From an uncultured Planctomycetia bacterium (lineage in GTDB: Bacteria; Planctomycetota; MHYJ01; WSZJ01; CAZYRM01): DNA of 64,000 nucleotides. Made by a program: the position numbers and the translations under genes. How positions within the stretch are numbered: position 1 is the first letter of the stretch; each line of letters starts with the position of its first letter. The notes beneath the pieces were generated by a model that searched no databases, had not been told where the DNA came from, and saw only the letters and a program-made list of their open reading frames with translations. Of this stretch, positions 5,321-28,630 are shown piece after piece. The stretch spans positions 1,480 through 65,479 of the forward strand of contig CAZYRM010000005.1 in the NCBI GenBank assembly GCA_964649705.1, read 5' to 3'.

Positions 5321-5500
5321 GTTTGCACCTCCCTGGCACACGAACGTGCCTGGGAGCGGCAAGGGAAGGGCCAGGGAGCGCGATCTTCGGGATGACGCAA
5401 CTCACTGCCCCGCAAGGCGCTCAACGCCCGAGGGGTGCGCCCCGACGAGGAGGCGAGCATTGCAAAACGCCAGTGTCGGGCGATCCGCCAGGGGGGAGCC

Positions 5501-8551: not shown

Positions 8552-8565
8552 CCCCCAGCGAGGGC

Positions 8566-11500
8566 CTATCGACCTCGACGCAGCTCCGCGAGCGACTTCT
8601 CGACCTCACCACGGAAGGCCCAGCCCGCGGGGGCCACCTCCAGGGCCTTCTCCAGGCTCTTCCGAGCCCCCTCGCGGTCGCCGAGGGCGAGGAGCGCCAT
8701 GCCGCGGTCGGCGTTCGCCTCGGGAGAGTCGGGCGCGGCCTCGCAGGCCGCCTCGTAATCCGCCAGGGCCCCGCGCAGGTCGTTGAGCGCGGCCTTCGCG
8801 TTGCCGCGCCAGATCAGCGCGACCGCGTTTCGAGGGTCCTTCGCCAGCACCGCGTCGAGGTCGGACTTCGCACCGTCGTTGTCTCCGGCCCCCGCCCGCA
8901 GCGTCCCGCGCGTCACGCGGACCTCCAGGTCCTCCGGCGCCCGTTTCACCGCCTCGTCGCAGTCCGCCAAGGCGCCTGGCGCGTCCCCCGCCTGCGAGCG
9001 GACGATGGCGCGGTTCCTCCACGCCTCCACCCAGGAGGGGTCGACGCGGATCGCCTCGTCGAGGTCGGCCCTCGCCCCCGCGATGTCCCCCTTCATCGAC
9101 TTGACGCCGCCTCGGCTCGCGAGGGCCATCGCGCTCGATGGCCGCAGACGCGCCGCTTCATCGAGGTCCGAGAGGGCGCCGTCGAAGTCCCCCTCCCGCG
9201 CGCGCAGCGCCCCGCGGTTGTACCACGCGTCGAAGATCGACGGGTCGCGCTCGATCGCCGCCGTGAAGTCCGCCCGGGCCCTCGCGTGGTCCCCGAGCTT
9301 CAGCCACACCGATCCGCGGTTGTAGCGCGCCGGGCCGAACTCAGGGTCGCACTCGATCGCACGGTCGTAGTCGGCCAGCGCCCGCTTCAGCTCGCCGCGT
9401 TCGACGTGGATCCGCGCCCTCCCCGCGAGCGCGACCGCGTCCCTCGGGTCGAGGACGATCGCGGCCTCAAAGTCGGCGAGGGCGCCCTCCAGCTCGTTCC
9501 GCTCCACCCTGACGCAGCCTCGATTCACCAGCCCCTTGACGCTCCGCGGGTCGAGACGGAGGGCGGTCTCGCAGTCGGCCAGGGCCTTGCCGAGGTCCCC
9601 CTTTTCCCGCCACGAGTCCGCGCGGTTCGCGTAGGCGTCGACGCACCCCGGGTTGGACTCGATCGCCGCGGTAAAGTCGGCGATGGCACCGTCGTGGTCC
9701 TTCCTGAGAGACCGCACGTACCCGCGGTTCACGAAGGCGACGGCGTGCCGCGGGTCGATGGAGAGGGCCGCCTCGTAGTCGGCCAGCGCCCCGGCTTGGT
9801 CCGCCCTGTCCAGCTTCACGTTCCCCCGGTTCGCGTACGCGGTCGCGAAGCGCGGGGAGACGCGGATCGCCTCGTCGTAGTCGGCCAGGGCGGCCCCCTT
9901 GTCGCCGGCCAGGTGCTTCGTGAGCGCGCGGCAGAAGAGCGCGAGGGCGAACTTGGGCCGGATCGCGATCGCCTGGTCGAACGAGTCGTCGGGCCCGAGC
10001 CCCGTGCGCGACAGGCCGCGGAGCCAGTAGAGGTCCTCTCGCCCCGCCGAGCGGGCGTAGGCGCGGAGCCCCTCCTCGCAGAGCTTCGCCGCCGCGACGT
10101 GGTCCCCTCCCGTGTAGGCGGCCATCGCGCGCGCGAACTGCCGTTGCACGTCGTCATCGAAGCCGCCCCCGTCGGCCAGGGCCGCCTGGGCCTCCTCCGC
10201 CGCAAGCTTCGCCCACCTCTGCGCCCCCGGCGAGCTCCAGTTCATCTCGGGCCTCGACGCCCCGAGCGTCGCGAGGAAGGCCCGTTCCAGGCAGATCCGC
10301 GCGAGACGGTAGTGCGCCGGCCCGAAGCGGGGGTCGATCGAGAGGGCCCGGCGATAGGACGCCTCGGCGCGGTCGTCCCAGCCGCGGACCTCCCAGCCGA
10401 CGCCCATCAGGTAGTGGGCGGGAGCGAGGTCCGGGCAGAGGTCGATCGCCTTCCCGATCCAGCCCTGCGCGGTCTCCACCCGCGCGAGGAGGTCGGCGAC
10501 GCTCGCCTCCTTGTCGTAGAAGGTCGGCTGCACCTGCGCGTACGCGGCGCGGGCCTGCTCGACCAGTGTGAGGGCCTCCGCCTGCCTGCGCTCGCGCCCC
10601 TCGGCGGCGCGGCGGTCGGCGTCGGCCTGCTCGGCCAGCCGCGCCTGCGCGCCGCGGTCGTGGAGCGCGTACCACAGGCCCCCCGCGAGCACGACGGCGA
10701 TGGCGGCGGGGATCAGGACGGCGCGGCGCTTGGACGCCTTGCGCAGGACCCGCTCGACCCACCCCACGGGGCGCGAGAGGATCGGCTCGCCGTCGATCCA
10801 GCGGCGCAGCTCGGCGGCGAGCTCGGCGCCGTCGGCGAAGCGGCGCGCGGGGACCTTCTCGAGGCAGCGCATGGTGATCGTCTCGAGGTCGCGGTGGACG
10901 CGCTCGTTGGCGCGGCTCGGCGGCGCGGGGTCCTGGGAGAGGACGGCGAGGATGGCCTCGAGCCCCTCCCCCTCGAACGGGAGCCTCCCGGTGAGGGCGT
11001 GATAGAGGACGATGCCGAAGCTGAAGACGTCGCTCCGCGGGCCGACCAGGTCGCGTCCGCCGCCGGCCTGCTCGGGGGACATGTAGCGCGGCGTCCCGAG
11101 CACGGCGCCGCTCACGGTGAGGTCCTGGCCGAGATCGGTCGCGGAGAGCTCCTTGGCGAGGCCGAAGTCCATGAGCATGGCCCGGCCGCGGGAGTCGACC
11201 ATGACGTTGGAGGGCTTCACGTCGCGGTGGACGACGCCCTGGGCGTGGGCGTAGCCGAGGGCCTCGGCGACCTGTGCGAGGACCTCGACGCGGCGGCGGA
11301 GGGGGAAGGAGGCCCAGGAGGGGTCGCCGCGGAGGCACTCCTCGAGCGGCCTCCCTTCGACGAGGTCCATGGTGAAGTACGGGCGCCCCTCGCTCTCGCC
11401 GACGTCGTGGATGGCGACGATGCCAGGGTGGTGCAGGCGCGCGGCGGAACGCGCCTCGCGGAGCAGGCGGACGGCGGCCTTGTCGTCGAGGAGGCCCCCG

Positions 11501-11871
11501 CGCGCGGTGAGCATCTTGAGCGCGACGGCGCGGTTGAGCTGGGTGTCCCACGCCTCGTGGACGACTCCCATGCCACCGCGGCCGAGCTCGCGGCGAAGGA
11601 GGTAGCGGCCGAAAGGGACGCCGTCCGCGGGGTGTGGGCGCGCTGCGGGCGGATCGATCGGCGGCCCGGCCTGGACGGGTCTCAAGGCGCCGCCGCAGAT
11701 CGGGCATGGGGCCGGCTGCGTGGGGTCTCGGCCCGCGCCTGGGTAGACGCGGTCGCAGTGCGGACAGAGGAGGAACGACGGGGCGAAGGTCCCCGGCGTG
11801 GGGGCCTCCGCCGGACGGGTGGCCTCGGCGGGGGCGGGGATCGTGGGGTCCTGTGCGCCGGCCCATTCCAT
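8566..11871 (-). CDS. Ser/Thr protein kinase with N-terminal zinc ribbon and C-terminal TPR domain (paralog of 5501..8551)
   Basis: CPHCDRV..CPICGG ribbon. GRGGMGVVHEAWD, HRDVKPSNVM, DFGLAK. A TM segment, then a long TPR array. Start at MEWAGAQ (ATG 11869-11871) with GAGGAGG upstream. Confidence 0.85.
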   Translation of the reverse strand: MEWAGAQDPTIPAPAEATRPAEAPTPGTFAPSFLLCPHCDRVYPGAGRDPTQPAPCPICGGALRPVQAGPPIDPPAARPHPADGVPFGRYLLRRELGRGGMGVVHEAWDTQLNRAVALKMLTARGGLLDDKAAVRLLREARSAARLHHPGIVAIHDVGESEGRPYFTMDLVEGRPLEECLRGDPSWASFPLRRRVEVLAQVAEALGYAHAQGVVHRDVKPSNVMVDSRGRAMLMDFGLAKELSATDLGQDLTVSGAVLGTPRYMSPEQAGGGRDLVGPRSDVFSFGIVLYHALTGRLPFEGEGLEAILAVLSQDPAPPSRANERVHRDLETITMRCLEKVPARRFADGAELAAELRRWIDGEPILSRPVGWVERVLRKASKRRAVLIPAAIAVVLAGGLWYALHDRGAQARLAEQADADRRAAEGRERRQAEALTLVEQARAAYAQVQPTFYDKEASVADLLARVETAQGWIGKAIDLCPDLAPAHYLMGVGWEVRGWDDRAEASYRRALSIDPRFGPAHYRLARICLERAFLATLGASRPEMNWSSPGAQRWAKLAAEEAQAALADGGGFDDDVQRQFARAMAAYTGGDHVAAAKLCEEGLRAYARSAGREDLYWLRGLSRTGLGPDDSFDQAIAIRPKFALALFCRALTKHLAGDKGAALADYDEAIRVSPRFATAYANRGNVKLDRADQAGALADYEAALSIDPRHAVAFVNRGYVRSLRKDHDGAIADFTAAIESNPGCVDAYANRADSWREKGDLGKALADCETALRLDPRSVKGLVNRGCVRVERNELEGALADFEAAIVLDPRDAVALAGRARIHVERGELKRALADYDRAIECDPEFGPARYNRGSVWLKLGDHARARADFTAAIERDPSIFDAWYNRGALRAREGDFDGALSDLDEAARLRPSSAMALASRGGVKSMKGDIAGARADLDEAIRVDPSWVEAWRNRAIVRSQAGDAPGALADCDEAVKRAPEDLEVRVTRGTLRAGAGDNDGAKSDLDAVLAKDPRNAVALIWRGNAKAALNDLRGALADYEAACEAAPDSPEANADRGMALLALGDREGARKSLEKALEVAPAGWAFRGEVEKSLAELRRGR

Positions 11872-11964
11872 GCGGGGCGAGCCTCCTCGCGCTCGAACGA
11901 GGATTCTGGTCCCTGGCCCGCCCTGACACAAGCAGGATCTGCCCCTCCCCCGCGCGCGGGCCGA

Positions 11965-13203
11965 TCACCGCTGGCGAAGCTGTTCGAGGAGCCGCTCGGC
12001 GCGGGCGCGCACCTCGGCGTCGCGCGTGGACTCGAGCGCGCGCCGCAGCGCCGGATCCGCAAAGCGCCCCATCGCCGCAATCGAATCCGTCGCCGCGTCC
12101 CGCTCCGAGGGCGACTCGGCCCCCAGCGACCGTACGAGCGACGCGATCTCGGCCTCCCGCTCGGGCGTGAGGAACTCGAGCCTCCCCACGAGCACGCGGA
12201 CGAGCTCGTCGGGCTCCGGTTCGAGCGTCAGCGGCAGGAGGCGGTCCGTCGCCTCCCTCGGCACCATGTAGAAGAGCCTGGTCCCCTCCTCCCCCATCCA
12301 CGAGGTCCGCCAGGTCTTCACCATCGCGCGGGCCTCCTTCTCATAGAGCCCCTCGGCGACCAGCGCGCCCGCCATCGCGTCGGAGAGGGCGTCCGCCGAG
12401 GCCTCATCGGCGGGGAGGGAGACCTCGACCGATCCGCCGGGCGCGATGGAGCTCGCCTTCGCGAACCGAACCCTCCCCTCGCGGACGTTCACGGCGAACA
12501 CGGAGTGGATCGGCTGCGCGCCGCCGTTCGAGACGACGATGCGGTCTCCGCCCTTCGCCTCGACCTGGATCGGCAGGCGGAAGTTGCCCACGCCGCGGTA
12601 GAAGAGGAACTTCTCGTAGTAGTCGTCTTGCATTCCGCTCTTGTCGCAGCGACGCACGAGCGCCGAGTCGGTCTCGCGTGCGTAGGCGTAGTGGTTGTCC
12701 CCCTCCACGGCGGGGACGCGGGCGTCGGGCTGGAGTGTGGCGAGCATCGACTCGGGGAAGACGAGCACGCGGCCCCAGCGGAGCATGCCGCCGGTGAGCG
12801 GTTCGGGCTGGCCGGGGACGTACGCGGGCGCCATTTCTCGGACGGGCGGGAAGAACTCGGTCATGATCCCCTCGGGGAAGTCGACGCGCACGTCGACCTC
12901 GCGCGGCTGGTCCGTATAGAAGTAGAGGACCGGCGTCTCCATCCGCTGCAGGGCGGACATGCCGGACTTCGAGAGGACGAGCTGCCTCTCCTCCGAGAGG
13001 CCCGCCTGCCGCGCCCGGTCGTAGACGAACGCGGGCAGCTCGTTGTCGACGATGGGGCGGTACTCGAGGTAGACGCCGTCGGAGCCGGCGAAGCCGGTGA
13101 AGGTCCCCCACTCGTGGACGACGAAGGGGCCCGTGGGGCCCTCCTCGGCGGCGAGGGGGGCGATGAGAAGGGCCAGGGCAAACAGGAACGTGGCGGCGCG
13201 CAT
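11965..13203 (-). CDS. Secreted hypothetical protein
   Basis: Signal peptide MRAATFLFALALLIAPLAAEE. AAGGAG 6 nt upstream of ATG 13201-13203. The long N-terminal extension in the track is junk. Confidence 0.7.
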   Translation of the reverse strand: MRAATFLFALALLIAPLAAEEGPTGPFVVHEWGTFTGFAGSDGVYLEYRPIVDNELPAFVYDRARQAGLSEERQLVLSKSGMSALQRMETPVLYFYTDQPREVDVRVDFPEGIMTEFFPPVREMAPAYVPGQPEPLTGGMLRWGRVLVFPESMLATLQPDARVPAVEGDNHYAYARETDSALVRRCDKSGMQDDYYEKFLFYRGVGNFRLPIQVEAKGGDRIVVSNGGAQPIHSVFAVNVREGRVRFAKASSIAPGGSVEVSLPADEASADALSDAMAGALVAEGLYEKEARAMVKTWRTSWMGEEGTRLFYMVPREATDRLLPLTLEPEPDELVRVLVGRLEFLTPEREAEIASLVRSLGAESPSERDAATDSIAAMGRFADPALRRALESTRDAEVRARAERLLEQLRQR

Positions 13204-13596
13204 GGAAGTCTCCTTGTGGCAAGACACGTCGCAGGGTGGAAAGTGCAACGCTCGTGCCGGAGGCCTTCTTTCCAACGCTCGTGGGGGCCTTGCCTTGCGC
13301 CAGGGCCCGGGGCGGGGAGTCCGTCCGTGTGGATGGCCTCCACGTGGGTGGGGAGAATGTCCCCAGAGGGACGGTCCTGGGACATGTCCGTCGGACCGCC
13401 GCAGCGCGCCCACGGGCTGCCCTCGATCGCGCACGAGGCGGCGTCGTGAGGCACCTCGGCCACTTCGACCCGTACCTCCTCGCCCACCGCGGGAAGGAGC
13501 ACCTCGTCGACGAGCGGCACTACAAGGCCGCCATCCGCAAGGCGGCGTGGGTCTCGGCCGTGCTCCTCGTCGACGGCCGCGGGTGAGCGGAGCGAC

Positions 13597-13947
13597 TCAC
13601 GGCAACCCGAAGCTCACGCGGAGCGCGCGGTCCACGTCGGCCATCACCGTTGGAGAGAGCGCTCCCAGTCGCGCGGTCAGGCGATCCTGGAGGACCGTGG
13701 AAATGTGGCCGGCGTCCACGATGGAGTCCTTCGTCAGGCCACCCTCCCCCTTGGGCGCCCGGGCGTACACGGGGAGGGGCCGTCCACCATGCGGGTCGCG
13801 GATGGCGGCGACCAGGGTCTCGGGGGAGAACCGGTTCCCGATGTCGTTCTGAACGACGACGACCGGCCGCTTCTTGTTCAGACGCCCCCCGTAGGGGGCC
13901 GTATCGAGCAGGTAGATCTCACCCCTGCGCACGTCTCCGTTGGACAC
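13597..13947 (-). CDS. MazF/PemK-family toxin endoribonuclease
   Basis: RRGEIYLLD...KKRPVVVVQND is characteristic of the PemK/MazF fold. The start codon is GTG (13945-13947) with AAGGAGGG 6 nt upstream. Confidence 0.8.
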   Translation of the reverse strand: MSNGDVRRGEIYLLDTAPYGGRLNKKRPVVVVQNDIGNRFSPETLVAAIRDPHGGRPLPVYARAPKGEGGLTKDSIVDAGHISTVLQDRLTARLGALSPTVMADVDRALRVSFGLP

Positions 13948-14215
13948 TCCTGCCCTCCTTGCGTCCTCCGCCGCCCGGCCAGCTCGACGCGGACAGCAGC
14001 TCCTGTGTCAGCGACTCGTCGGCGGCCACGTTGGCCGGATTGGCGAAGTACTCGCGGTAGGCCTGCTCCATCTCCTGCATGTCTCGGCCCCGCTCGTGTT
14101 CGACGAGGAGGCGACGGATCGCCTCGCTCCGCGAGCCCCACTCCTTCGCAAGCCGATCGAGGCTCGCCACGTGCTCCGCTTCCAGCGAGATCGAAATCGT
14201 CCGCACAGTCTTCAT
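13919..14215 (-). CDS. Ribbon-helix-helix (CopG-like) antitoxin
   Basis: N-terminal RHH signature (TVRTISISLEAEHVASLDRLAKEWGSRSEAIRRLL). Immediately upstream of the MazF-like gene. 29-bp overlap with the toxin. Confidence 0.65.
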   Translation of the reverse strand: MKTVRTISISLEAEHVASLDRLAKEWGSRSEAIRRLLVEHERGRDMQEMEQAYREYFANPANVAADESLTQELLSASSWPGGGGRKEGRSVQRRRAQG

Positions 14216-14269
14216 GTGAGAGTCCCTGACGGGTTATTGACACCAGCATGACGCTTCATCGTGTGCGTG

Positions 14270-15043
14270 TCAATACCAGGGGGCAAGACGCCGCCGATCC
14301 GCCGCGCTGCGGATCGTATCTTTTGCCCTTCCCTGGGGCGCGTCCGCAGAACGGCATCGCCGCTGGTACGCGGGTGAGGGGGGCCGCTCACGCCCGGGCA
14401 CTCGCCAGGGGACCAGCTCGCGGCGAATGCGCTCGACGTACGAGGAGACGTCGATGCGGCCGCCCGCGAGCCCGCGCTCGACGCGCGGGATCCAGACCTG
14501 CTCCACACTCGCCTCCCAGGCGGCGCGGTCCTCCACCCAGGTCTCCCAGCGGAGGACCATCTCCGCCAGGAGCGCCCGCTGCCAGGCGGTGCGGCGAAGG
14601 ACGGGGCAGCCTGCGCCCCAGTCGGCGTAGGAGTCGCTGCGCTTCCTGATCCGCGATCGCGACTCGGCGCCAGGCTGCTCGAGCGCAGCGACGGCCGCCT
14701 CCCACGCCTCGCGCGGGCGCCTCTCCTCGTGGAACTCCTCCTCGAATGCCCGGAGGGCGCGTTCGGCGCACGCGAGCGTCCCCGGCTGGGGGAGGCGGAA
14801 GAGGCCGGCGATCAGGGATGCGAGCGAGACGAGGGCGAACATGACGGCGAGTGGCGCTGCGATGCCCGCCGCGAGGCCGAGGACGGGGCCGGCGATCGAT
14901 CCCAGCACGCCGTAGCGGGTGCCGATCCGAACCCCGATGAGGAGTCCGCGAAGGGCGCCGCCGGCGATCAGGAGACAGCAGCCCAGCTCGATCAGCGTGG
15001 CTCCCGCGGCTCGGTTCCCCTCCGATGAGCCGGGCCTGCGCAT
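14270..15043 (-). CDS. Integral membrane protein, hypothetical
   Basis: Internal start MRRPGSSEG with GGAGGA 5 nt upstream. Two or three hydrophobic helices (LIELGCCLLIAGG..., VLGSIAGPVLGLAAGIAAPLAVMFALVSLASLIAGLF), then a soluble domain. The two long overlapping track ORFs here are frame artefacts. Confidence 0.5.
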   Translation of the reverse strand: MRRPGSSEGNRAAGATLIELGCCLLIAGGALRGLLIGVRIGTRYGVLGSIAGPVLGLAAGIAAPLAVMFALVSLASLIAGLFRLPQPGTLACAERALRAFEEEFHEERRPREAWEAAVAALEQPGAESRSRIRKRSDSYADWGAGCPVLRRTAWQRALLAEMVLRWETWVEDRAAWEASVEQVWIPRVERGLAGGRIDVSSYVERIRRELVPWRVPGRERPPSPAYQRRCRSADAPQGRAKDTIRSAADRRRLAPWY

Positions 15044-19296: not shown

Positions 19297-19411
19297 GTCT
19301 CTCCGCGCTACGCGCGCTCCGCGTCCTGGCAGCCGTAAGGCATGAAGCGGGGAAGGCCCTCGCAGCCCTGGGAGTTGGCGGCGAGCAGACCCTACCTACC
19401 ATCGCGTCGGC

Positions 19412-19801
19412 CTAGGGAGATGGGATACGCTGCTTCACGTCGGCGAGGAGCCTCTCCGCCAGGGCGAGCACGCTCTGGGCCTCCTGGAGCGAGGGCATGG
19501 GCGCTCCGGGCGGCCGTGCGTCCGGGTATCGGACGAGGGTGTAGTAGCCTTGGGCCACCTGAAGTCCGAGAAGGTGGTCCGGAAAGCCGGAATCCACCTT
19601 GCGAACGGCGTGAAACAACTGCTCCAGGTCGTGCGACTGAGGAATACGCCCGGTCAAGTGAAGTAGGAGGGCCTTCAACCCCTTTTCTGCCGCTTGCTGG
19701 CCGTGGAAACAGGCGTGCTTCGCGATGCCGCGGGAGATCAGGACTCGCACGCTCTCGGCATCCTCTTCCGCGTCTGCCAGCCACTCACGCGGGCTTGCCA
19801 T
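19412..19801 (-). CDS. HEPN-domain protein (toxin partner of the minimal nucleotidyltransferase)
   Basis: Start MASPREWLADAEED. HEPN-like helical domain with an R-x4-H type motif (RYPD...). 17-bp overlap with the upstream MNT gene. Confidence 0.75.
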   Translation of the reverse strand: MASPREWLADAEEDAESVRVLISRGIAKHACFHGQQAAEKGLKALLLHLTGRIPQSHDLEQLFHAVRKVDSGFPDHLLGLQVAQGYYTLVRYPDARPPGAPMPSLQEAQSVLALAERLLADVKQRIPSP

Positions 19802-20210
19802 AGAGGACTCTTCCCCTCCCCAGGATCTCATCGCGAACGAAGTAGTTTCCCTGCCGCAACATCTCCCGCCACTCCCCGGGTGTGTAAACGAGGATGTCGA
19901 GAGCCTCGTGCGCATCAGCCGCAATGCGCGCGTCACGGAGGCGGTCAAGGAATGGGCAATCGGTCTCCTTGATCAGGCAGAGGTCGATGTCCGATCCCTC
20001 CCGGGCCTGTCCCCGGGCAAGGCTGCCGAAGAGGATGACACAACTCGGCTGATAGCGCTCCCGCAGGTTTCCCACGATGCGCGTGAGCTCTTCCTCCAGG
20101 ACCGAGGCGCGCTCGACCACGGGTCTGAACTCCTCTGAACGGTCATGATCGTATCGTCCGAGACACGTTCGGACAAGTTGGATCCTCGCCCAACGCGAGC
20201 TCCGCCTCAT
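19785..20210 (-). CDS. Minimal nucleotidyltransferase (MNT) domain protein, HEPN/MNT pair
   Basis: VILFGSLARGQAREGSDIDLCLI, the GS...DxD pol-beta nucleotidyltransferase motif. An alternative GTG start at 20120 has GAGGAG 9 nt upstream. Confidence 0.75.
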   Translation of the reverse strand: MRRSSRWARIQLVRTCLGRYDHDRSEEFRPVVERASVLEEELTRIVGNLRERYQPSCVILFGSLARGQAREGSDIDLCLIKETDCPFLDRLRDARIAADAHEALDILVYTPGEWREMLRQGNYFVRDEILGRGRVLYGKPA

Positions 20211-20474: not shown

Positions 20475-21242
20475 CTACGACGCTCCGAACGACCCGTGGC
20501 GGCCGGCGCCGCCGGCGAATTTGAGCGCGCCCGCAAGCGACTCGGATTCAAGGACTCCGGCGCCGCAGCGGAACTCGTTCCGTAACGCCTCGTCGAGTTC
20601 GAGGTGGGCCTGCCCGTAGACGGAGCGACGGTCCGCGAGGACGCAGCCGAAGGGGAACGCCGCGATCTCGCGCGCAAGCTGCTCGGCGGCCTGGCGCGAT
20701 TCCCCGCGCGGCACGAGACGATTCACGAGCCCCATACCCAGGGCCTCGGCGGCGCCTACCGGGCGCCCCGTCAGGATCAGGTCAAGCGCGCGCGACATCC
20801 CCACGAGGCGCGGGAGGCGGACCGTTCCTCCGTCCACGAGCGGGACACCCCAGCGCCGACAAAAGACGCCCAGCACGGCGTCCTCCTCCGCGACGCGCAG
20901 GTCGCACCACAGCGCGAGCTCGAGGCCGCCGGCAACGGCGTGCCCCGCGATGGCGGCGATCACCGGCTTCGACAGCCGCATCCGCGACGGCCCCATCGCT
21001 CCGGGCCCGGTCTCCTCCAGCCGCGGCAGGTCCCCCTTCGCCACGGCCTTCAGATCGGCCCCGGCGCAGAACGTCCCTCCCTCTCCCCACAGGACCGCGA
21101 CTCGCGTCCTCGGGTCGGCGTCGAACTCGCGAAACGCCTCGACGAGACGGTCCGCCGTCTCGCGATCCACGGCGTTACGCACCTCGGGGCGATCGAGGAC
21201 CACGGTCGTCACCTCGCCTCCCCGCTCCACGCGCACGCTCAT
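20475..21242 (-). CDS. Enoyl-CoA hydratase/isomerase (crotonase) family protein
   Basis: Full-length crotonase fold, 255 aa: GGTFCAGADL oxyanion-hole region and AIAGHAVAGGLELAL. Confidence 0.85.
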   Translation of the reverse strand: MSVRVERGGEVTTVVLDRPEVRNAVDRETADRLVEAFREFDADPRTRVAVLWGEGGTFCAGADLKAVAKGDLPRLEETGPGAMGPSRMRLSKPVIAAIAGHAVAGGLELALWCDLRVAEEDAVLGVFCRRWGVPLVDGGTVRLPRLVGMSRALDLILTGRPVGAAEALGMGLVNRLVPRGESRQAAEQLAREIAAFPFGCVLADRRSVYGQAHLELDEALRNEFRCGAGVLESESLAGALKFAGGAGRHGSFGAS

Positions 21243-21294: not shown

Positions 21295-22098
21295 CTAGGC
21301 CGGGTGGCCGAGGGCGATCAGGTAGACGACGGTCTCGCGCGAGTCGATCTTCAGCGTCTCCGCGACGCCCGCCTCGTGGAAGCCTCCGATCGGGCAGCAC
21401 GCGAGACCCAGGGCCGTTGCTGCCAGGATCAGGTTCTGCGCCAGGTGACCCGCGTCGAGCCAGACGAAGCGGTAACCCCGCTCGCCGTACTTGCGCAGCG
21501 TGCGCTCGAAGACCGCAGAGAGGACCAGAACGACAGGCGCCGAGAGCTCCTCTTCGGCCGTCATCACCGAGGAGGCCAGCGCGTCGCGGATGGGGCCCTC
21601 GAAGAGCGTCTCGAGGCAGGAGTCGACGGGGTCGTAGTGGTGCGCCCCCGCGTAGGGGCCGTCGAGGACCGCGGCGTAGAGCTCGATTGGGTAGATCCCC
21701 CCCGCGCTCGGCCAGGCGCGAAGCCGCTGCACGAGACCGCTCGTCCCAGGGACGGGAAGCTCCCCCGTGACGCCCGCCGCCGATCCGAGGAGGCGGCCCA
21801 GGAGGCCGAGGTCGAGAGGCCTCCGTGCGAAGCGGCGGACGGTGCGGCGACGGCGAAGGACGCTCCAGAGGGAGGCCATGCGCCAGGCCCGCCCCGCGGG
21901 GAGCGGAGTCCGCTTTGCGCCGGGATACGTTCGCCGCGCCTGGGTCGACTCGATCATCGCGTCCGCGTCGTCGAGGAAGTGGCGGATAGGCTCGGTGCGC
22001 CATGCGCCGACGTTCGGCCCGAGCTTCGATCCGTCGAGGTGCGTCCTCGCGAGCGGCCAGGTCTCCACGTCGTCGAGCGGTGTAGGGTTCCAGCGCAT
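21295..22098 (-). CDS. SagB/ThcOx-type nitroreductase-fold dehydrogenase (TOMM B protein)
   Basis: Start MRWNPTPL with GGAGGAG upstream. AGGIYPIELYA and YRFVWLDAGHLAQNLILAATALGLACCPIGGF are typical of SagB-type FMN dehydrogenases. Confidence 0.8.
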   Translation of the reverse strand: MRWNPTPLDDVETWPLARTHLDGSKLGPNVGAWRTEPIRHFLDDADAMIESTQARRTYPGAKRTPLPAGRAWRMASLWSVLRRRRTVRRFARRPLDLGLLGRLLGSAAGVTGELPVPGTSGLVQRLRAWPSAGGIYPIELYAAVLDGPYAGAHHYDPVDSCLETLFEGPIRDALASSVMTAEEELSAPVVLVLSAVFERTLRKYGERGYRFVWLDAGHLAQNLILAATALGLACCPIGGFHEAGVAETLKIDSRETVVYLIALGHPA

Positions 22099-22111
22099 GG
22101 GCTCCTCCAGG

Positions 22112-23179
22112 CTACGGGATCGGATGGGGCGATCGATTCCGGACGACGAGGCCGGGCGCGCCGAGGAAGGGCCAGTCCTCGATCGCATGCAGCGGCGCGA
22201 GACCGGGGACGATCGCCTTCACCACGTGGAACCCCGCGCAAGCGAGGTCCGACGACGTAAGGTCCTTCCACCAGGGCGCGTACCCGGCCGCGAGGAGCGC
22301 CTCACGCGGATCGACGCGGCACGCGGTCGGCGCCCGCCTCGGACCGGTGCGAAACAGGTCGAGCACCGCACGCCGCTCCGCGTGGTCCGTGTAGAACCTC
22401 GCGTGGTCCTCGAACGACTCCAGCCTGTCCCGCGGAGTCGACCTGCGGACGAGGGAGCGCACGTAGATTTGCCCGAGCTCCGCCTCGAGGTGCGCCTTCC
22501 CGAGCGCCTCGTCGAACGTCCGCGCCGCCGCGGTGCCTACCGAGACGACGTCGCGCTCCACGAGCACCGCCGCGACGGGAACGCCGAGCCGCCCCGTCAG
22601 GTCGACCGCGTGGGCGCCGGCCAGATCCACCGTCGGCGCCGGCTCCCCCGCGAACCACCAGCGGACGAAGGCGTCCCGCTCGATCGCCTCCAGCAACGCG
22701 GAGTCGAGCGCCGAGTCTACCGTCGGCCCGGCAGCGAGCCCTGTCGAGAGCGACGGGCCGAAGACCGCCTCCCCCGCCGCCGGCGCGTACGGGATGTACA
22801 CCGCGAACGCGGGGGCCGAGCGGGGCCGCCCCGTGGCCAGGTCGATCCCCTCCACCCACGCGCAGGGACCTTCGCTCGCGAAAGGGAACCCCGGGCCTCG
22901 TCGCTGCTCGTCCGAGAACGGCGCGACGTCGCCCGGCAGCACCGCGCCGGCCGGCGGCGGACCGACGACGCGCGCGAACCCCGCCGGCGTCGACGCCCCG
23001 TACCGCTCCGCCGCCTCCCCGAGGCAACGCAGCAGCGCCTCCTCGCGCGTCCACCCTCCCCCCGCTGCGTTCGGGAGACACGCCCCCCGACCAAGCGCCG
23101 CGGCGTCGCACAACTCCGCGGCGAACGCGAACATGGGCGGGTCCGACTCCGAGCGGACCGCCTCCACGACGCGGCGCAC
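22112..23179 (-). CDS. YcaO-domain cyclodehydratase (TOMM D protein); start uncertain
   Basis: GGGWTREEALLRCLGEAAERY and a C-terminal FHVVKAIVPGLAPLHAIED match YcaO. The frame stays open to 23887, but upstream residues are junk overlapping the C-protein gene. Candidate starts are GTG 23179, GTG 23167 and ATG 23134. Confidence 0.6.
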   Translation of the reverse strand: MRRVVEAVRSESDPPMFAFAAELCDAAALGRGACLPNAAGGGWTREEALLRCLGEAAERYGASTPAGFARVVGPPPAGAVLPGDVAPFSDEQRRGPGFPFASEGPCAWVEGIDLATGRPRSAPAFAVYIPYAPAAGEAVFGPSLSTGLAAGPTVDSALDSALLEAIERDAFVRWWFAGEPAPTVDLAGAHAVDLTGRLGVPVAAVLVERDVVSVGTAAARTFDEALGKAHLEAELGQIYVRSLVRRSTPRDRLESFEDHARFYTDHAERRAVLDLFRTGPRRAPTACRVDPREALLAAGYAPWWKDLTSSDLACAGFHVVKAIVPGLAPLHAIEDWPFLGAPGLVVRNRSPHPIP

Positions 23180-23216
23180 GACGCCGACGTGGCGGCCGAC
23201 CAGCGCGCGGAAGGCG

Positions 23217-23978
23217 CTACGCGCCGCAGTCGGGACAGCCGGGGACGGCCCAGACGGACTCACTCCCTCCCTCCAACGTCTCGAGGTCGACGACGAACAC
23301 CCGTCCCGCCAGGAGCGGAGGGGCGTGGCGACGCGTGAACCGCTCCACCTCCGCGGCGGCCAACGCGGCGACCGCCGCCGCGTGACGGTCGGGCCCCGAC
23401 GGCCCCAGCGATCGGTCGAGCGCGGCCCAGGCGCGCTCGGCGTCCGGGTGCGCGCGATGACTCGCCAGCCGCGCTCGGTAGCAGCCCCAGCACGCCGTCT
23501 CGCCGGGGACGAAGAGCGGCCCCACGCGGGCCCACGAGCCCTGGAGCGAGACGAGGAGCCACGGACGCCGCGAGTCCAAACGCGCGCGATTCCACCCCCG
23601 CATCTCCGACGGCCGCATGACCTCCTCGTGCACGACGGCGACCTCGTCCCCCTCCTCGACGACCTCCCCATCCAGCAACGGACGGAGCCTCGGCCATAGC
23701 GGGCTCTCCCCCACCAGGCGGACGCGCGCGCGGCGCGGGACGGACGCGGCCTCCTCGAGCACGCCCGCGGCGGCGAGCCGATCGATCGCGCGGTCGGTCT
23801 CCGTCTGCGGGACGCCGTCGAGGGCAACGAGGTCGCGGCCATCGAGGATCCCGAGCAGCTCCCCGATCCATGGCTCGGGGGCGCCATCGAAGAGGTAAAC
23901 CTCGCGGTCCCCTCCGCGGACGTGGAGAGGCGGACCAGGGACGACGACGAGCCCGGCGCGGAGCCTCGGCCTCTTCAT
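23217..23978 (-). CDS. E1-like TOMM docking/cyclodehydratase C protein
   Basis: Start MKRPRLRAGLVVV, ATGA-coupled to the upstream gene. PWLLVSLQGSWARVGPLFVPGETACWGCYRARL plus a C-terminal PGCPDCGA gives two CxxC pairs, as in SagC/McbB-like E1 homologs. Confidence 0.6.
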   Translation of the reverse strand: MKRPRLRAGLVVVPGPPLHVRGGDREVYLFDGAPEPWIGELLGILDGRDLVALDGVPQTETDRAIDRLAAAGVLEEAASVPRRARVRLVGESPLWPRLRPLLDGEVVEEGDEVAVVHEEVMRPSEMRGWNRARLDSRRPWLLVSLQGSWARVGPLFVPGETACWGCYRARLASHRAHPDAERAWAALDRSLGPSGPDRHAAAVAALAAAEVERFTRRHAPPLLAGRVFVVDLETLEGGSESVWAVPGCPDCGA

Positions 23979-24637
23979 TTCGCGTCGTTCAGGTAGGCGG
24001 GGTCCTCGCGGCGGAGGCGCTCGATGCGGTCCTCCACGCGCGTCAGGACGACCTTGAGCGCGTCCCGCAGGATGGCCCGCTCCAGGAAGGCGGGGACGGG
24101 CATCCCCGACTCCGCGTGGACCTCGTACCGCGCGAAGGTGCGCGAGGCGTCGATCGGCACGAGGACCCACCTCCCCTCGTTTACGGGGAGGCTCCCGCCG
24201 AACCGCTTCCATCGCTCCACGCGCTCGCGATCGCCGACCTCGACGTCGACGTCGATCTCCGTGTAGCGATCGACGAGGAAGTGGAAGTCGATTCGCACGC
24301 GCTTGTGCGAGCCCGACTGCTCCGTCACCTTGAGCTTCGCCATGCGCGGCATGAAGTCGGTCATCCTCTCGTGGTCGTGGACGACCTTCCAGACCTGGGC
24401 GATCGGGGCCTCGACGAGGGCGGAGATCTGGATCCACGAGGCGCCATTGCGGCGGACCAGGCGGCTGTCGACGTCTCCGCGGACGAGCCCCGCGGCGTCG
24501 GTTCGCTCGGCCTCGGTCCAGGTCCCGCGGAAGGCCGGCCACGCGAAGGCGAGCAGGCCGACGAGGACGACCGCGCGGAGGACGCGCCTCTTGCGGGGCG
24601 GCGGCGCAGGGGTCGGTTCCGGGGTCGCGTCGGGCAT
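23975..24637 (-). CDS. SRPBCC (START/Bet v1-like) domain protein with an N-terminal TM anchor
   Basis: N-terminal TM helix (VVLVGLLAFAWPAF). The domain pattern VHDHERMTDFMP...KRVRIDFHFLVDRYTEIDVDVEV...RYEVHAESG fits a polyketide-cyclase-like fold. Confidence 0.7.
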   Translation of the reverse strand: MPDATPEPTPAPPPRKRRVLRAVVLVGLLAFAWPAFRGTWTEAERTDAAGLVRGDVDSRLVRRNGASWIQISALVEAPIAQVWKVVHDHERMTDFMPRMAKLKVTEQSGSHKRVRIDFHFLVDRYTEIDVDVEVGDRERVERWKRFGGSLPVNEGRWVLVPIDASRTFARYEVHAESGMPVPAFLERAILRDALKVVLTRVEDRIERLRREDPAYLNDAK

Positions 24638-24638
24638 G

Positions 24639-24992
24639 CTAGCGGAAGGTCCCCATGGCCGTGTCGATCAGGAACCCGATCCCCGCGCCCGCAGCGCCGC
24701 CGAGGACGGCGAAGGCTACGAAGCGCACGAGCGTGCCGAGGATGATGCCGAAGACGCCGACGTCGCGCTGGGCGGCCTTCCCTCCCCCGCGTACGCCGGA
24801 GACGATGCCGAGGCCACCGCCGACGAGGAGCCCGATCCCGCCTCCGACGAACGTCAGGCAGCAGCAGGTCGTGGTGCAGCAGAGGAGGCGGTTCGCGGGG
24901 GAGCCCGCCGGCGGGAAGTCGTCGGACCGTCGTACCGACCAGTCGCTCACGCCCGTCCTCCATCCACGTTGCGAGGACTCTACGCTCGCCAA
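24639..24992 (-). CDS. Small Cys/Thr-rich protein with two glycine-zipper TM helices
   Basis: LLCCTTTCCCLTFVGGGIGLLVGGGLGIVSGV...FGIILGTLVRFVAFAVLGGAAGAGIGFLI. 1-bp gap to the downstream gene. The N-terminal 36 aa are hydrophilic. Confidence 0.5.
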   Translation of the reverse strand: MASVESSQRGWRTGVSDWSVRRSDDFPPAGSPANRLLCCTTTCCCLTFVGGGIGLLVGGGLGIVSGVRGGGKAAQRDVGVFGIILGTLVRFVAFAVLGGAAGAGIGFLIDTAMGTFR

Positions 24993-25024
24993 CGAACGAC
25001 GTCAACGAACGCCGGCACGGTTCC

Positions 25025-26818
25025 TCAGCGGCCTCGGTCGACTGGGCGCGGTCGGATCAGCGACGCGATCTCGCTCTCCTCGGGGCTGGAAACTGCACCC
25101 GCCACCAGGCGGTCCACGGTCCTCTCGCCGTTCGGGCGCTCCCACTTGCAGGACCACGGAGTCATGCCGCCGGAAGGGCACGGGAGGCCCACCGCGATGG
25201 CGTCCCTCCCCGCCCGCTCCTTCGCCTCCTCGTCGAGGAGGTCCCGGGCCTGGTCCATCACGATGGGGCCGCCGTGGGGACGGAACACGACCGCCGCCGA
25301 AGTCGTCCCGGCCCTGCCGGGAAGGGCGAGGAGCCTCTCACCCACCCTGGGGCGGTACGGCGAGGGGCACTCCTCGATGCGTCCGTCGGTCCTGCGCACC
25401 ACGAATCCCGTCCTGAACCGGTCGCGGATCTCCTGCGCGGCGGGGAGCACCCTGTCCGCGGGGAGCAGGGCGACGACGTCGTCCCCGCCTACATAGAGAG
25501 GAACGCCACCGTGCCTCCGGAGCACTTCGGGGACGCAGCGCAGGGCGAAGTCCGCGAGCGCCTCGCTGAGGAACAGGTGGACGGCCGGCGTCACCCAGCG
25601 CTTGCCCTCGGGCGGGGCGACCGCCTGCGAGTGAAACACGTCCTTCCACGTCGCGAAGCCTGGCGCGGTCCCCCCGCTGAGACCGCTGCTGTGATCCCCG
25701 TCCATCACGAGGAGGGCCAGGTCGTCGGCGGCGGGGACCGCCCTGCCTCGAAACACCTGGTCGAGAGGCGCGGGGAGGTCTACCAGCGGGAGCAGGCGCT
25801 TCGTATGGCAAGCCGCGCACAGCGGCTCTCCATGCGGCAGGGCCGCCCGCCCGCAGGCGGCGCAGGTCCGGCCCGGTTCCCGCCGGGCAGGCAGGCGCCG
25901 CACCGCCTCGGAGAGCTGCCTCTGGTTCCGCTCGAAGCACTCCCGGTAGGAGGCGGCGAGTCCCTGCGTCCCCGAGGTCCGCCACGAGGTCGCCTCCCAG
26001 GCGAACTCCCACGTGCGATCGCACTCCTGCTCCCATGCCGCTCGGTCCCCCTCCACGCGGTCGGCCACGCACGAGGCGAGCCTCCGCCACTCGGCGCGGA
26101 TCGCCTCGGCCATGCGCCCCGCGAGCGAGTCGGCGATGGGCTGAGGGACAAGGGCGAGGATGCGGTTGGAGAGTCCCGGGAGGGCCAGCTCGTCCGTCGA
26201 CGTCGGGGCGCCGACCCATTGTCGGAACAGCGGCTGGCGGGAGACGCACGGGTAGATCACGTGGTCCGGCCCGAGCTCCTCGCACACGGTGCGGAGCCCG
26301 ACCCAGACGAGGTACGAGGCGATCCACGTCCCCGTCCACAGCTCTTGGAACGACGACGCGGACCACGCGAACGACCGCACGGGTCCCACGGCGAATCCGA
26401 GGAGGGCCGGGTCGCCGTCGCACGCGGCGAGCGCGCTCACGAGGGCGCCGTGGTGCCACACGGACGAATCGGGCACGAGAGGGTCCGCGGGGAACCTGGG
26501 CCACGCGCCGCCGACGACCTCGTCCGCGTCGGCCAGGAATTCCGGCAGCACCGCGAACTGGCGGAGAAACGCGTCGCGCCCTGTGCGGGCGTGGTCGAGA
26601 ACTCTGGCGAGGACCTTCCACGCCGCCACGCGCGGGACGTCGACCGACACTCGCGCGGGGGAGATCGAATGTGTGACCTCGACGCGCTCCGGGAGGCAGG
26701 CTTCGCCACAGGGCTCGGCCAGGTGATCCTCGATCTCGCGGATCTTCGGCTCGACTTCGCCCCCCAGGGACCCACGGAGGGCCGAACGAAAGACGTGGGC
26801 CTTCTCCTCCCAGTTCAC
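25025..26818 (-). CDS. Cas10/Cmr2-like palm-domain (cyclase/polymerase) protein lacking an HD domain; solo, with no other cas genes in the window
   Basis: Palm1-like GPVRSFAWSASSFQELWTGTWIASYLVW. Treble-clef Zn finger CAACGRAALPHGEPLCAACH (C-x2-C-x11-C-x2-C). Second palm with LVMDGDHSSGL and GGVPLYVGGDDVVALLPAD (the GGDD motif). Confidence 0.7.
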   Translation of the reverse strand: MNWEEKAHVFRSALRGSLGGEVEPKIREIEDHLAEPCGEACLPERVEVTHSISPARVSVDVPRVAAWKVLARVLDHARTGRDAFLRQFAVLPEFLADADEVVGGAWPRFPADPLVPDSSVWHHGALVSALAACDGDPALLGFAVGPVRSFAWSASSFQELWTGTWIASYLVWVGLRTVCEELGPDHVIYPCVSRQPLFRQWVGAPTSTDELALPGLSNRILALVPQPIADSLAGRMAEAIRAEWRRLASCVADRVEGDRAAWEQECDRTWEFAWEATSWRTSGTQGLAASYRECFERNQRQLSEAVRRLPARREPGRTCAACGRAALPHGEPLCAACHTKRLLPLVDLPAPLDQVFRGRAVPAADDLALLVMDGDHSSGLSGGTAPGFATWKDVFHSQAVAPPEGKRWVTPAVHLFLSEALADFALRCVPEVLRRHGGVPLYVGGDDVVALLPADRVLPAAQEIRDRFRTGFVVRRTDGRIEECPSPYRPRVGERLLALPGRAGTTSAAVVFRPHGGPIVMDQARDLLDEEAKERAGRDAIAVGLPCPSGGMTPWSCKWERPNGERTVDRLVAGAVSSPEESEIASLIRPRPVDRGR

Positions 26819-26826
26819 GGCTCACC

Positions 26827-27447
26827 TCACGCGTCGGCCCGCTTCGCCTGGGCGAGCCTCTCCTTGAGGCCGTCGATCGTGCGGGCCAGGATGCCCAGCA
26901 CGACCTCCTCCCGCTCCTCCAGCGACGTGGTCTCGATCAGGTGGTACCTGACCCCGGCGTTGCGCAGGTACCCCTCGATGCGCGCGGCGACGTCCGCCCG
27001 CTCCTTGAGCGTGGAGGTCTTCCAGGGCTTCTTCTTCGTTCGGTATTCCAGGACGGGAGGGAGCAGGAAGACCGCGTCGTAGGAGGCGATCTCCTGGATC
27101 GACCACTTGAAGAGCTTGTGGACGACCATGACCTCGCGGGGGTCCTTGGGATCGAACCCCCAGAAGCAGGCCCAGACGAACGGGATGAAGGTCGCCGAGT
27201 CGCAGACGACGATCTCGCTGTTCGCGAGGTCGTCCTCCCGCCGCTTCTGCCCGAGGTAGATCATGACCTGGTCGAGAGAGTCCTGACGGCGTCTCTTCGT
27301 CGGCTTGACGTAGCGGGCCAGGTAGGTGCGCGCGTACTCGAGCGCGGTGTCGACGCTGTACCCGAGCATGCTCAGCGTGTTGGCGACCCTCCGCGCGAGG
27401 ACGGTTTTCCCGCTTGAGGGGGCGCCGACGATGGCGATTTTCCGCAA
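26827..27447 (-). CDS. P-loop NTPase (AAA_28/NadR-like predicted kinase/ATPase)
   Basis: Walker A IAIVGAPSSGKTV and Walker B-like VVCDSA. 206 aa. 8-bp gap to the Cas10-like gene. Confidence 0.75.
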   Translation of the reverse strand: MRKIAIVGAPSSGKTVLARRVANTLSMLGYSVDTALEYARTYLARYVKPTKRRRQDSLDQVMIYLGQKRREDDLANSEIVVCDSATFIPFVWACFWGFDPKDPREVMVVHKLFKWSIQEIASYDAVFLLPPVLEYRTKKKPWKTSTLKERADVAARIEGYLRNAGVRYHLIETTSLEEREEVVLGILARTIDGLKERLAQAKRADA

Positions 27448-27466: not shown

Positions 27467-28630
27467 TCAGCGCCCCTTGCCGAGGCGGGCCTGCCAGGCC
27501 TTGAGGAGCGCCGCGCGGGAGGCCTCCGTCCAATCGGCGGGCAGATCGGGGCCGCTCCCGAGCAGGCCCTCGAGCTCCTTATGCACCAGTTCCACGAGCG
27601 TCTTGCGGTGCGCGACCTGGTTCGCGGGGACCGCGTCGGCCTTCGGGAACGCGCCGAGGAGCGCCTCCGCCGACGAGCGCTTCGCCTTGTCGCCGCAGCG
27701 GGAGCCGATCGAGGCGACTGCCTGCACCGAGGTCCGCGTCACGCCGTTCAGAAAGTCGCCGCTCGTCGCGAAGGGACGCAGCGCTTCGATCGCCGAGGCG
27801 TCTCCCATCGCGCCGAGGGCGTCGGCGGCGTGCATCCTGAGGACGTTCGGATTCCGCGAGGCGACCTGCGGCGAGTCCGCGTCCTTCAGGAGCGCGAGGA
27901 CCGCCTGGGAGGCGCCGGCGTCGCCCGCGGCCTTGAGCGCGTCGAGAACGGCGAAGCGGAACGGGTCGCTCTTCACCTCGAGCAGTCCCTTCGCGCGCTT
28001 CACCACCACGCCCGCATCCGTCCCCACGAGGTTCTGCAGCGCGCGGAACCGAACCACGGGGTCGGCGTCGCCGACGAGCGTCGCCGCCTTCGCGTGCGAC
28101 TTCTTCGCCGCCGTCGCGTCCTCGAGCTCGCACGCGGTCGCGTCCGGATCGTCCCCGGCGGCCGCCTTCCCCTTCTTCACGCGCGACGCGGCCGCCTTCA
28201 CCGCCGAGAGAAACCCGCCGAGCTCCCGGCCGGTCTCGGAGAGGACCTCCTGCGAGGACGGGTCGACGAGGAAGAGGTTCGGGTAGGTCGTTACGCTGAA
28301 ACGGATCTCGACGCGCTCCGCCGCGCGGTCCCGCTCGTCGTTCTTGAAGTCGCGGTACACCCAGACCCAGACCACGTCGCCGTAGACGGCCTTCAACTCG
28401 GCCTTCGGGAGCAACTGCTCCTCCACCACGACGCAGGCGGGTCAGTAGGTCTTCGTAAAGTAGAGGAAGAGCGGCTTCCCCGCGGAGAGGGCCTCCTTGC
28501 GGGCCTCGGGGTAGCTCATCTGCCACGGGGGCCCCGCGACGGGGGTCTCCCCCGCGAAGAGCGGGACGGCGAAGAGGAGCGCGGCAAGCGTGCGCGTCGG
28601 CATGGTCACCTCCCTGGCGGAAGGCGGCAT
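27467..28630 (-). CDS. Candidate selenoprotein: secreted thioredoxin-like (Thioredoxin_7/DUF255-type) domain fused to HEAT repeats, with in-frame TGA (28442-28444) at the first Cys of the CxxC motif
   Basis: ORFs 28442..28630 and 27467..28429 are in the same frame, separated by a single TGA. Read through, the fold motif is KPLFLYFTKTY-U-PAC-VVVEEQ (U-x-x-C where W-C-x-x-C is expected). Signal peptide MPTRTLAALLFAVPLFAG. C-terminal HEAT/PBS-lyase-like repeats. Confidence 0.6.

Follow-up and report, generated by a model that had tools for sequence, protein, structure and literature searches.

In a 64,000-nt stretch of contig CAZYRM010000005.1 from an uncultured Planctomycetia bacterium (assembly GCA_964649705.1; hereafter the window, with a G+C content of about 70% and a match to a metagenome contig from Hainich groundwater, the GenBank proteins of which bear the label Planctomycetota bacterium MAG), five minus-strand genes lie tightly packed from position 24950 down to 21295 (Table 1). 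They encode a small membrane protein, an SRPBCC protein and three enzymes which, as set out below, are supported as the C, D and B components of an azole synthetase of the thiazole/oxazole-modified microcin (TOMM) type. By comparing related loci, we found that these five genes recur as a unit, in which the small protein is the likely substrate of the enzymes.

Table 1. Features of the five-gene cassette and its immediate surroundings in the window.
Feature	Position	Strand	Length	Basis or remark
Small precursor-like membrane protein	24639..24950	-	103 aa	GTG start behind GGAGGA; hydrophilic N-terminal leader, Cys/Thr block, two-helix GxxxGxxxG hairpin, IDxxMGTFR end
Leader motif DDFP (residues 10-13) of the small protein	24912..24923	-		Homolog alignments
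Putative core block CCTTTCCC (residues 24-31) of the small protein	24858..24881	-		8 contiguous heterocyclizable residues, directly before the first membrane helix
SRPBCC (START/Bet v 1-like) protein	23975..24637	-	220 aa	Pfam match
TOMM C protein	23217..23978	-	253 aa	RRE-like leader-binding and E1-like domains, two CxxC pairs
YcaO cyclodehydratase (D)	22112..23263	-	383 aa	Ends ...NRSPHPIP
SagB-type FMN-dependent azoline dehydrogenase (B)	21295..22098	-	267 aa	TIGR03605
Promoter-like site TTGACG-17 nt-TAGAGT	24977..25005	-		In the 74-nt gap between the Cas10-like gene and the small open reading frame
Enoyl-CoA hydratase gene, downstream flank	20475-21242			Pfam/NCBIfam scans

The SRPBCC gene begins one base past the small open reading frame (ORF), and the C gene starts with the ATG at 23978, within an ATGA (23975-23978) overlapping the stop codon of the upstream SRPBCC gene, and ends at 23217, stop codon included. 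The YcaO gene overlaps the end of C by 47 nt; its start is the GTG at 23263, behind GGAGGGAGGGA, in agreement with the 383-aa database protein P0001, and the ATG of the SagB-type gene (22098) follows 13 nt past the YcaO stop codon. Packed and overlapping in this way, the genes leave no space for a further ORF inside the cassette. Its boundary reaches 24950, or 25005 when the promoter-like site is counted; this was the sole sigma-70-like match in 11 kb (shuffled sequences gave 0.2) and is a match to the consensus only, planctomycete promoters lying outside the model of the scan. A preliminary description of this DNA had proposed that the three minus-strand genes at the downstream end form a C, YcaO and SagB-type trio, and its coordinates, quoted motifs and junctions were all found in the sequence. 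The two CxxC pairs of the E1-like protein are CWGC (residues 163-166) and CPDC (residues 248-251), the YcaO protein carries GGGWTREEALLRCLGEAAERY, and the SagB-type protein carries YRFVWLDAGHLAQNL. The coupled starts it described are likewise present at the ATGA and, with the 13-nt gap, before B, but C and D, which it took to be merely contiguous, in fact overlap.

The enzymes themselves are ordinary, and are auto-annotated in GenBank already. In Pfam and NCBIfam scans, the YcaO protein matched the Pfam YcaO model with 132.9 bits (cut-off 25.7) over profile positions 2-324 of 325, the C protein matched the model for TOMM leader-peptide-binding proteins (TIGR03882) with 76.8 bits (cut-off 36.9), and the B protein matched both the SagB family model (TIGR03605; 128.2 bits, cut-off 78.4) and Pfam Nitroreductase (102.9 bits). 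Among solved structures, TruD, LynD, MusD and MccB were matched by the sequence of C, and the cyanobactin oxidase CyaGox and McbC by that of B. A profile made from eight YcaO proteins of the family scored 106.5 bits with TruD, 105 with LynD and 98 with MusD when run against the PDB, compared to 71 bits for the thioamide-forming MJ1094 and 26.8 for E. coli YcaO (4q84). The AlphaFold2 model of C, with a mean predicted local distance difference test (pLDDT) score of 85.6, has three N-terminal strands, then helices and then an alpha/beta domain. Foldseek, employed with the whole chain, placed TruD and LynD at the top (TM-score on query 0.65-0.70), followed by MccB, McbB and PaaA, and each of these five proteins joins a leader-binding domain to an E1-like domain. 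The E1-like domain of C is without the GxGxxG loop. The two CxxC pairs of C match the position of the four-Cys structural metal site of McbB (PMC6395948).

The catalytic features are in place as well. The ATP/Mg-binding core of the YcaO protein is intact. GExxERY, ExxERD and PHP are invariant among the eight YcaO family members, and the last residue is Pro in seven of them; a PxPxP-type C-terminal motif goes with azoline-forming YcaOs (PMC12338566), and McbD and LynD, unlike E. coli YcaO, have a C-terminal proline placed in the active site (PMC6395948). K201-Y202, the catalytic pair of McbC (PMC6395948), has its aligned counterpart in B in the Lys-Tyr of ...LRKYGERGYR.... Because the family cut-offs, the solved relatives, the fold of C and the catalytic features, i.e. 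the PHPIP tail and the Lys-Tyr pair, agree, the TOMM reading of the trio is sound, and the C/D/B azole synthetase put forward in the preliminary description is supported by sequence comparison. Two other types of YcaO were considered and rejected. One is the TfuA type, which the preliminary description had named as a possible alternative: no TfuA domain is found among the neighbors at any locus, a C partner, here with the leader-binding fold, is always present, and the YcaO profile favors the azoline-forming TruD and LynD. The other is the stand-alone E. coli type, rejected on the profile scores (26.8 bits for 4q84 against 106.5 for TruD) and on a length of 383 aa with a proline tail, rather than a C-terminal dimerization domain.

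Related loci were taken from the contigs of YcaO relatives, the contigs of small-protein homologs and GTDB genome loci, and all window proteins were compared with each of them by tblastn. The diversity analysis rests on these protein matches and genome-contig loci; a scan of metagenome contigs with the small-protein alignment gave 494 pattern matches, of which tblastn upheld a single, previously found locus. The YcaO family is small, with ten relatives at 46-100% identity in a word-indexed search and the next at about 32%, and a profile search with the small protein yielded 33 clusters among 1.84 billion representative proteins. The small protein, SRPBCC, C, YcaO and SagB genes were found together in 11 distinct loci (the window, L004, L006, L008, L011, L013, L016, L018, L020, L023 and L024), and in 11 out of 11 distinct loci with enough sequence the small gene adjoins the enzymes, despite differing flanks. 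The loci L007, L012, L014 and L022 are without one gene, the sequence stopping before its expected place. Wherever the contig permitted a check, the enzymes accompanied the small gene in every case, and the SRPBCC gene is co-conserved in each locus having upstream sequence. In a distant branch, with a Ca. Kuenenia metagenome-assembled genome (MAG), Ca. Uabimicrobium sp. HlEnr_7 and other Planctomycetota MAGs, the SRPBCC and small genes have changed places. Of all members examined, P0055 (CCCCCCCC) is the most divergent, and there too a C-like protein (27% identity, pairwise E = 3e-13) comes next before the contig breaks off. The cassette is a rare one, of Planctomycetota. One locus (L018), a 7.3-kb contig binned as 'uncultured Chitinophaga sp.', has the same gene order as L019 (the Ca. 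Kuenenia MAG) and L023 (a Planctomycetota MAG), with a very similar small protein, and is probably a binning error and not an occurrence in Bacteroidota. The loci L025-L038, obtained via the YcaO alignment from Rokubacteria, Acidobacteriota and Actinomycetota (23-41% identical), belong to other TOMM families, with neither an SRPBCC gene nor a homologous small protein, and were therefore kept solely as a negative control.

Outside the five genes, the neighborhood changes. The upstream genes for Cas10-like, AAA_28 and HEAT proteins are confined to the window and L008-L010, and a dynamin-like GTPase replaces them in L004 and L011. The enoyl-CoA hydratase neighbor occurs in this genome only, and the neighbors in distant loci are purH, glycosyltransferases, HMG-CoA reductase or FGE-sulfatase. 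As they are confined to the window clade or to this genome, the enoyl-CoA hydratase, Cas10-like, AAA_28 and HEAT genes were rejected as members of the cassette; no other small ORF is conserved across the loci. In L004 (78% YcaO identity), the cassette is followed at 12565-14944 by genes for a 201-aa membrane protein, a TCAD9-domain protein and a stand-alone Peptidase_C39, with a dynamin-like GTPase and a 1124-aa HEAT protein upstream, a conflict-system-like setting that differs from that of the window. The comparative genomics which the preliminary description had suggested consequently redraws its picture of the locus. The three-gene cassette it proposed is real, but too narrow, as the conserved unit comprises five genes. 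Of the flanks it named, the SRPBCC gene, the Cys/Thr-rich Gly-zipper ORF and the enoyl-CoA hydratase gene are all present, but the first two are co-conserved with the enzymes and no mere flank. The long mixed operon in which it had embedded the trio is local to this genome, since the enoyl-CoA hydratase, Cas10-like, AAA_28 and HEAT genes are missing from the more distant loci.

The small gene is labeled as encoding a hypothetical protein in GenBank. Its G+C content at in-frame third codon positions (GC3) is 0.88, and a public gene caller predicts the same ORF. No Pfam or NCBIfam model matched the protein, and when 26 homologs were run against Pfam with E up to 1, sub-threshold matches to glycine-zipper, Tim17 and Romo1 models were all that appeared, giving no family assignment. 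The leader is hydrophilic, with D11 and F12 as its sole invariant residues, and in 41 non-redundant homologs the distance from this DF to the end of the block is 17-21 residues, mostly 19. The block consists of 7-9 residues, all of them Cys, Ser or Thr, preceded by Leu or Ala; in the same 41 homologs, six of its columns are 97-100% Cys/Ser/Thr, and four of these swap freely among T, C and S. A six-frame scan of the window, in line with the search for Cys/Ser/Thr stretches in small ORFs that the preliminary description had advised, singled out CCTTTCCC as the sole such block within a substantial ORF, the other match being a 7-residue run in a 17-codon ORF. The first membrane helix follows directly after the block and carries a GxxxGxxxG motif, while the last helix carries a second one together with an invariant Asp, and both motifs and the Asp stay invariant across sequences that are 30-40% identical. 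In some homologs the loop between the helices holds two additional ones, the predicted helices always numbering two or four. In an AlphaFold2 model, residues 18-61 and 66-98 form a helical hairpin predicted with confidence. Confidence is low for the N-terminus with leader and block, which is consistent with flexibility in that part. By the positive-inside rule, the topology of the window protein is ambiguous (N-terminal net charge 0, loop +2), while most homologs favor an N-in orientation (up to +6).

Since the motif has a fixed spacing, the core is made of heterocyclizable residues only, the gene strictly adjoins those of the enzymes and there is no room for another ORF, we infer that the small protein is a leader-directed substrate, and on these grounds the 103-aa protein is likely the substrate of the azole synthetase. 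As a precursor it would be non-canonical, because a membrane hairpin comes after the core. A large C-terminal extension is no obstacle in principle, as McbA fused to beta-galactosidase is still modified (PMC6395948, citing Madison 1997). The preliminary description, which held that no canonical short precursor adjoins the enzymes, was correct in this, but it had listed as flank the very Gly-zipper ORF that is the likely non-canonical one. It had also reasoned that an absence of any plausible substrate from related genomes would speak against a TOMM cassette; in fact, each related locus of sufficient length has a plausible substrate encoded beside the enzymes. Both the five-gene architecture and the precursor family seem to be undescribed: the cassette is not described in the literature on YcaO in connection with SRPBCC, glycine zippers, Planctomycetes or transmembrane precursors that was searched, mostly outside subscription journals, and Planctomycetes and transmembrane precursors go unmentioned in the 2015 TOMM survey.

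A 203-aa ORF upstream of a more distant C-D-B trio, whose YcaO protein ends in PWPHPFA, was found on a contig binned as a Methanobacteriota archaeon (L021, 4302-4913). Its N-terminal block, TCCCCSCCCCT, precedes several hydrophobic helices; it has no DF motif, and no SRPBCC gene lies beside it. This might be another, independent instance of a membrane protein with a Cys-run encoded beside an azole synthetase. The G+C-richness of the contig makes the ORF itself uncertain.

The SRPBCC protein matched Pfam Polyketide_cyc with 42.3 bits and Polyketide_cyc2 with 34.1 bits, while a search of the PDB with its sequence gave no match below E = 0.04. A basic N-terminal stretch and one hydrophobic helix, i.e. 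a signal anchor or a signal peptide, are found in all six SRPBCC orthologs examined.

Taking these data together, we lean towards a reading in which the five-gene cassette puts azoles on CCTTTCCC of a small membrane protein that is retained in the membrane of the producer and works with the SRPBCC protein. The C protein would bind the hydrophilic N-terminal leader of the 103-aa protein, probably via the invariant Asp-Phe at its fixed distance from the core. The YcaO enzyme, with ATP, would cyclodehydrate the contiguous Cys and Thr residues of the block to thiazolines and methyloxazolines, and the FMN enzyme would oxidize these azolines to thiazoles and methyloxazoles, so that up to eight azoles in a rigid row would stand where the first membrane helix begins. 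The small membrane protein, modified in this way, would remain in the producer's membrane and cooperate there with the membrane-anchored SRPBCC protein. That the product is retained is suggested because the substrate bears its own conserved glycine-zipper hairpin, and because protease and exporter do not travel with the cassette: no protease or transporter is conserved with the five-gene unit at any related locus, and the large ORFs of the window, examined to a distance of about 15 kb, include none. Retention is also favored by the lack of a double-glycine or other conserved cleavage motif between leader and core of the homologs, by a hairpin conserved in the manner of a structural membrane protein, and by the presence of one precursor gene per locus.

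Several observations weigh against this reading, which is moreover drawn from sequence throughout. Four Cys positions (CC....CC) and one Thr position in the block are nearly invariant, and the pattern therefore partly fits a metal-binding or other Cys-dependent role. Both the YcaO protein (TIGR03604, 136.3 vs 219.25 bits) and the C protein (TIGR03603, 37.4 vs 187.65 bits) fall under the cut-offs of the SagD and SagC models, respectively. By the positive-inside rule, which is the only basis for this prediction, the SRPBCC domain would be located on the outer side of the cytoplasmic membrane, and as leader and core must meet cytoplasmic ATP-dependent enzymes, the partnership of the SRPBCC protein and the small protein is topologically unexplained. 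The surroundings of the cassette vary even in close relatives, with conflict-type genes in the window clade, which fits an accessory competitive function better than a housekeeping membrane protein. Furthermore, in the chromosome of Ca. Uabimicrobium sp. HlEnr_7 (L024, 5968-7214), an organism growing in enrichment culture, two overlapping ORFs (164 and 268 aa) stand in place of an undivided YcaO gene, each fragment matching one part of the Pfam YcaO profile; a frameshift, a pseudogene or an assembly error may account for this.

With the same enzymology and the same substrate, the product might also be a released, azole-modified glycine-zipper bacteriocin or cytolysin, dependent on an unlinked protease to remove its leader and on general or unlinked exporters, and with the outward-facing, membrane-anchored SRPBCC protein as an immunity or sequestering factor of the producer. 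GxxxG-rich helical hairpins are common in membrane-active bacteriocins, and the predicted extracytoplasmic SRPBCC domain suits an immunity role. A toxin would also be in keeping with the rare and patchy distribution of the cassette (33 clusters), with flanks that shift between close relatives, with a transposase in L009, with the conflict-type neighbors in the window, L004 and L008, and with the stand-alone Peptidase_C39 gene about 2.5 kb downstream in L004. In addition, a contiguous heterocyclizable run followed by a C-terminal extension resembles the cores of the streptolysin S type (PMC4603692). However, a protease, a CaaX-type immunity protein and an ABC exporter, which occur in all 312 surveyed cytolysin clusters (PMC4603692), are conserved with this cassette at none of the loci. 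As the leader and core are not separated by a conserved cleavage motif, the C-terminal hairpin is structurally conserved rather than hypervariable, and each locus has a single precursor gene, we regard a released toxin as unlikely, albeit as the alternative to be taken most seriously.

It is clearly less probable still that the small Cys-rich protein is no substrate at all, but a free-thiol membrane partner with a metal-binding, redox or anchoring role, the real precursor being encoded elsewhere or unrecognized. Mer-type transporters bind metals through vicinal Cys pairs in their membrane helices, and the nearly invariant CC....CC, with its four Cys positions, would agree with such a role. Some TOMM families, e.g. 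the heterocycloanthracins, also encode their precursor far from the enzymes (PMC4603692). Yet the residues between and around the Cys pairs exchange among Cys, Ser and Thr only, which a metal site does not need, and the spacing between the block and the invariant leader motif is fixed. The cassette moreover lacks the room for another ORF, the loci share no other conserved small ORF, and the small gene never occurs without the enzymes where the contig allowed this to be seen.

Lastly, that the YcaO enzyme performs another backbone activation (thioamidation or amidine formation) or halts at azolines, giving a product other than a poly-azole, is highly improbable: YcaO enzymes do catalyze several reactions, and this one is an outlier because it is below the SagD family cut-off, but there is no TfuA or sulfur-delivery gene at any locus, the cassette always includes a SagB-type dehydrogenase whose Lys-Tyr pair is intact, the C-terminus is of the PxPxP type, and the YcaO family profile fits azoline-forming enzymes better than thioamide-forming ones.

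Returning to azoles on a retained membrane protein, the azole-forming YcaO systems described so far are makers of small, cleaved and exported peptides, such as toxins, antibiotics and cyanobactins, and none is known to us that puts azoles on a resident membrane protein. Here, the same chemistry would be tied to a conserved small membrane protein and a partner with a lipid-binding fold, in the absence of cleavage or export genes. If true, azole installation reaches beyond natural-product biosynthesis to the maturation of resident membrane proteins, and a new precursor family is defined, the members of which are overlooked by precursor searches confined to short ORFs. We tentatively suggest, with less assurance than for the modification itself, that TOMM enzymes have here become a protein-maturation system, placing a contiguous run of up to eight azoles in the N-terminus, near the membrane, of a resident glycine-zipper protein that works with a dedicated, membrane-anchored SRPBCC protein; the resident azole protein might, for example, form an oligomeric, metal-binding, redox-active or lipid-interacting assembly. 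The proposed modification predicts a mass loss of up to 160 Da on one eight-residue block.

Other parts of the window were annotated as well. The minus-strand gene at 25025-26818 encodes an orphan Cas10/Cmr2-like protein of 597 aa, with Pfam Cmr2_N and palm2 domains and 115 bits to TIGR02577. The PADLOC Cas10 models match it with 180 and 173 bits, and it keeps the GGDD motif and a CxxC...CxxC finger, with no obvious N-terminal HD domain. Tandem Repeats Finder detected no CRISPR array in the 64 kb of the window, and the proteins scanned included no other cas gene product. Together with the genes at 26827-27447 and 27467-28429, it makes up a trio with AAA_28 (NadR-like kinase) and HEAT-repeat genes that is conserved in L008-L010 and may be a stand-alone cyclase-based signaling or defense module. 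Directly downstream of the enoyl-CoA hydratase gene, on the same minus strand at about 19400-20100 (11979-12687 in L001), an NTP_transf_2 nucleotidyltransferase gene and a HEPN gene form a pair in the arrangement typical of MNT-HEPN toxin-antitoxin modules. Two adjoining large Ser/Thr protein kinase-TPR fusions, of about 1030 and 1130 aa, are encoded on the minus strand at 5501-11964, next to a TPR-only protein (3833-5401), and a 33-bp tandem repeat of about four copies with 77-78% matches lies at 57423-57573, inside or beside a short G+C-rich ORF.

The cassette acts in the manner of the microcin B17 and streptolysin S azole synthetases, in which C, D and B are discrete proteins. With the latter (SagA and SagBCD) it shares separate C, D and B proteins and a precursor made up of an N-terminal leader, a run of Cys, Thr and Ser, and a C-terminal extension. 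The differences are nevertheless several: the run is 7-9 residues long and follows Leu or Ala, whereas cytolysins have Gly and then at least 10 heterocyclizable residues (PMC4603692); the CaaX-type protease and the ABC transporter used as criteria for that group (PMC4603692) are lacking here; the extension is a conserved membrane hairpin of two or four helices; an SRPBCC gene belongs to the unit; the hosts are Planctomycetota; and the enzymes are under the SagC and SagD cut-offs. Membership in the cytolysin group was rejected because the protease and transporter are missing and the run is shorter. McbBCD is likewise built from three subunits, namely a scaffold of RRE and E1-like domains with a four-Cys site, a proline-tailed YcaO and a Lys-Tyr FMN dehydrogenase (PMC6395948), and it tolerates big C-terminal fusions on its substrate. 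In contrast, the identity of the C proteins is just 11-12% in the structural alignment and the similarity of the B proteins is weak, while McbA, a Gly-rich peptide, is soluble, bears isolated as well as paired azoles, and is served by dedicated cleavage and export genes that are missing here. The best sequence and structure matches for C and D are the cyanobactin heterocyclases TruD, LynD and MusD, which have the architecture of RRE, E1-like and YcaO domains in common with them; there, however, C and D are fused, and dedicated proteases excise and macrocyclize the products, whereas here the two genes are separate and overlapping, and there is no protease.

For the proposed fate of the product, the closest concepts come from other chemistries. 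MNIO enzymes modify Cys-rich segments of larger, sometimes membrane-embedded, proteins, and the bufferins among their products chelate copper (PMC12452194). By analogy only, the bufferins and the MNIO-associated TIGR04222 or MerC-fusion membrane proteins may be likened to the small protein described here, as Cys-rich segments that are turned into heterocycles and retained by the producer, although the enzyme family is an unrelated one (MNIO, not YcaO/SagB) and the modified segments are periplasmic and C-terminal. The thioglycine of McrA and the thioamide of uL16, while being single thioamidations made without a C partner or a dehydrogenase, are alike in that a YcaO enzyme acts on a protein which stays functional in the cell (PMC13063428).

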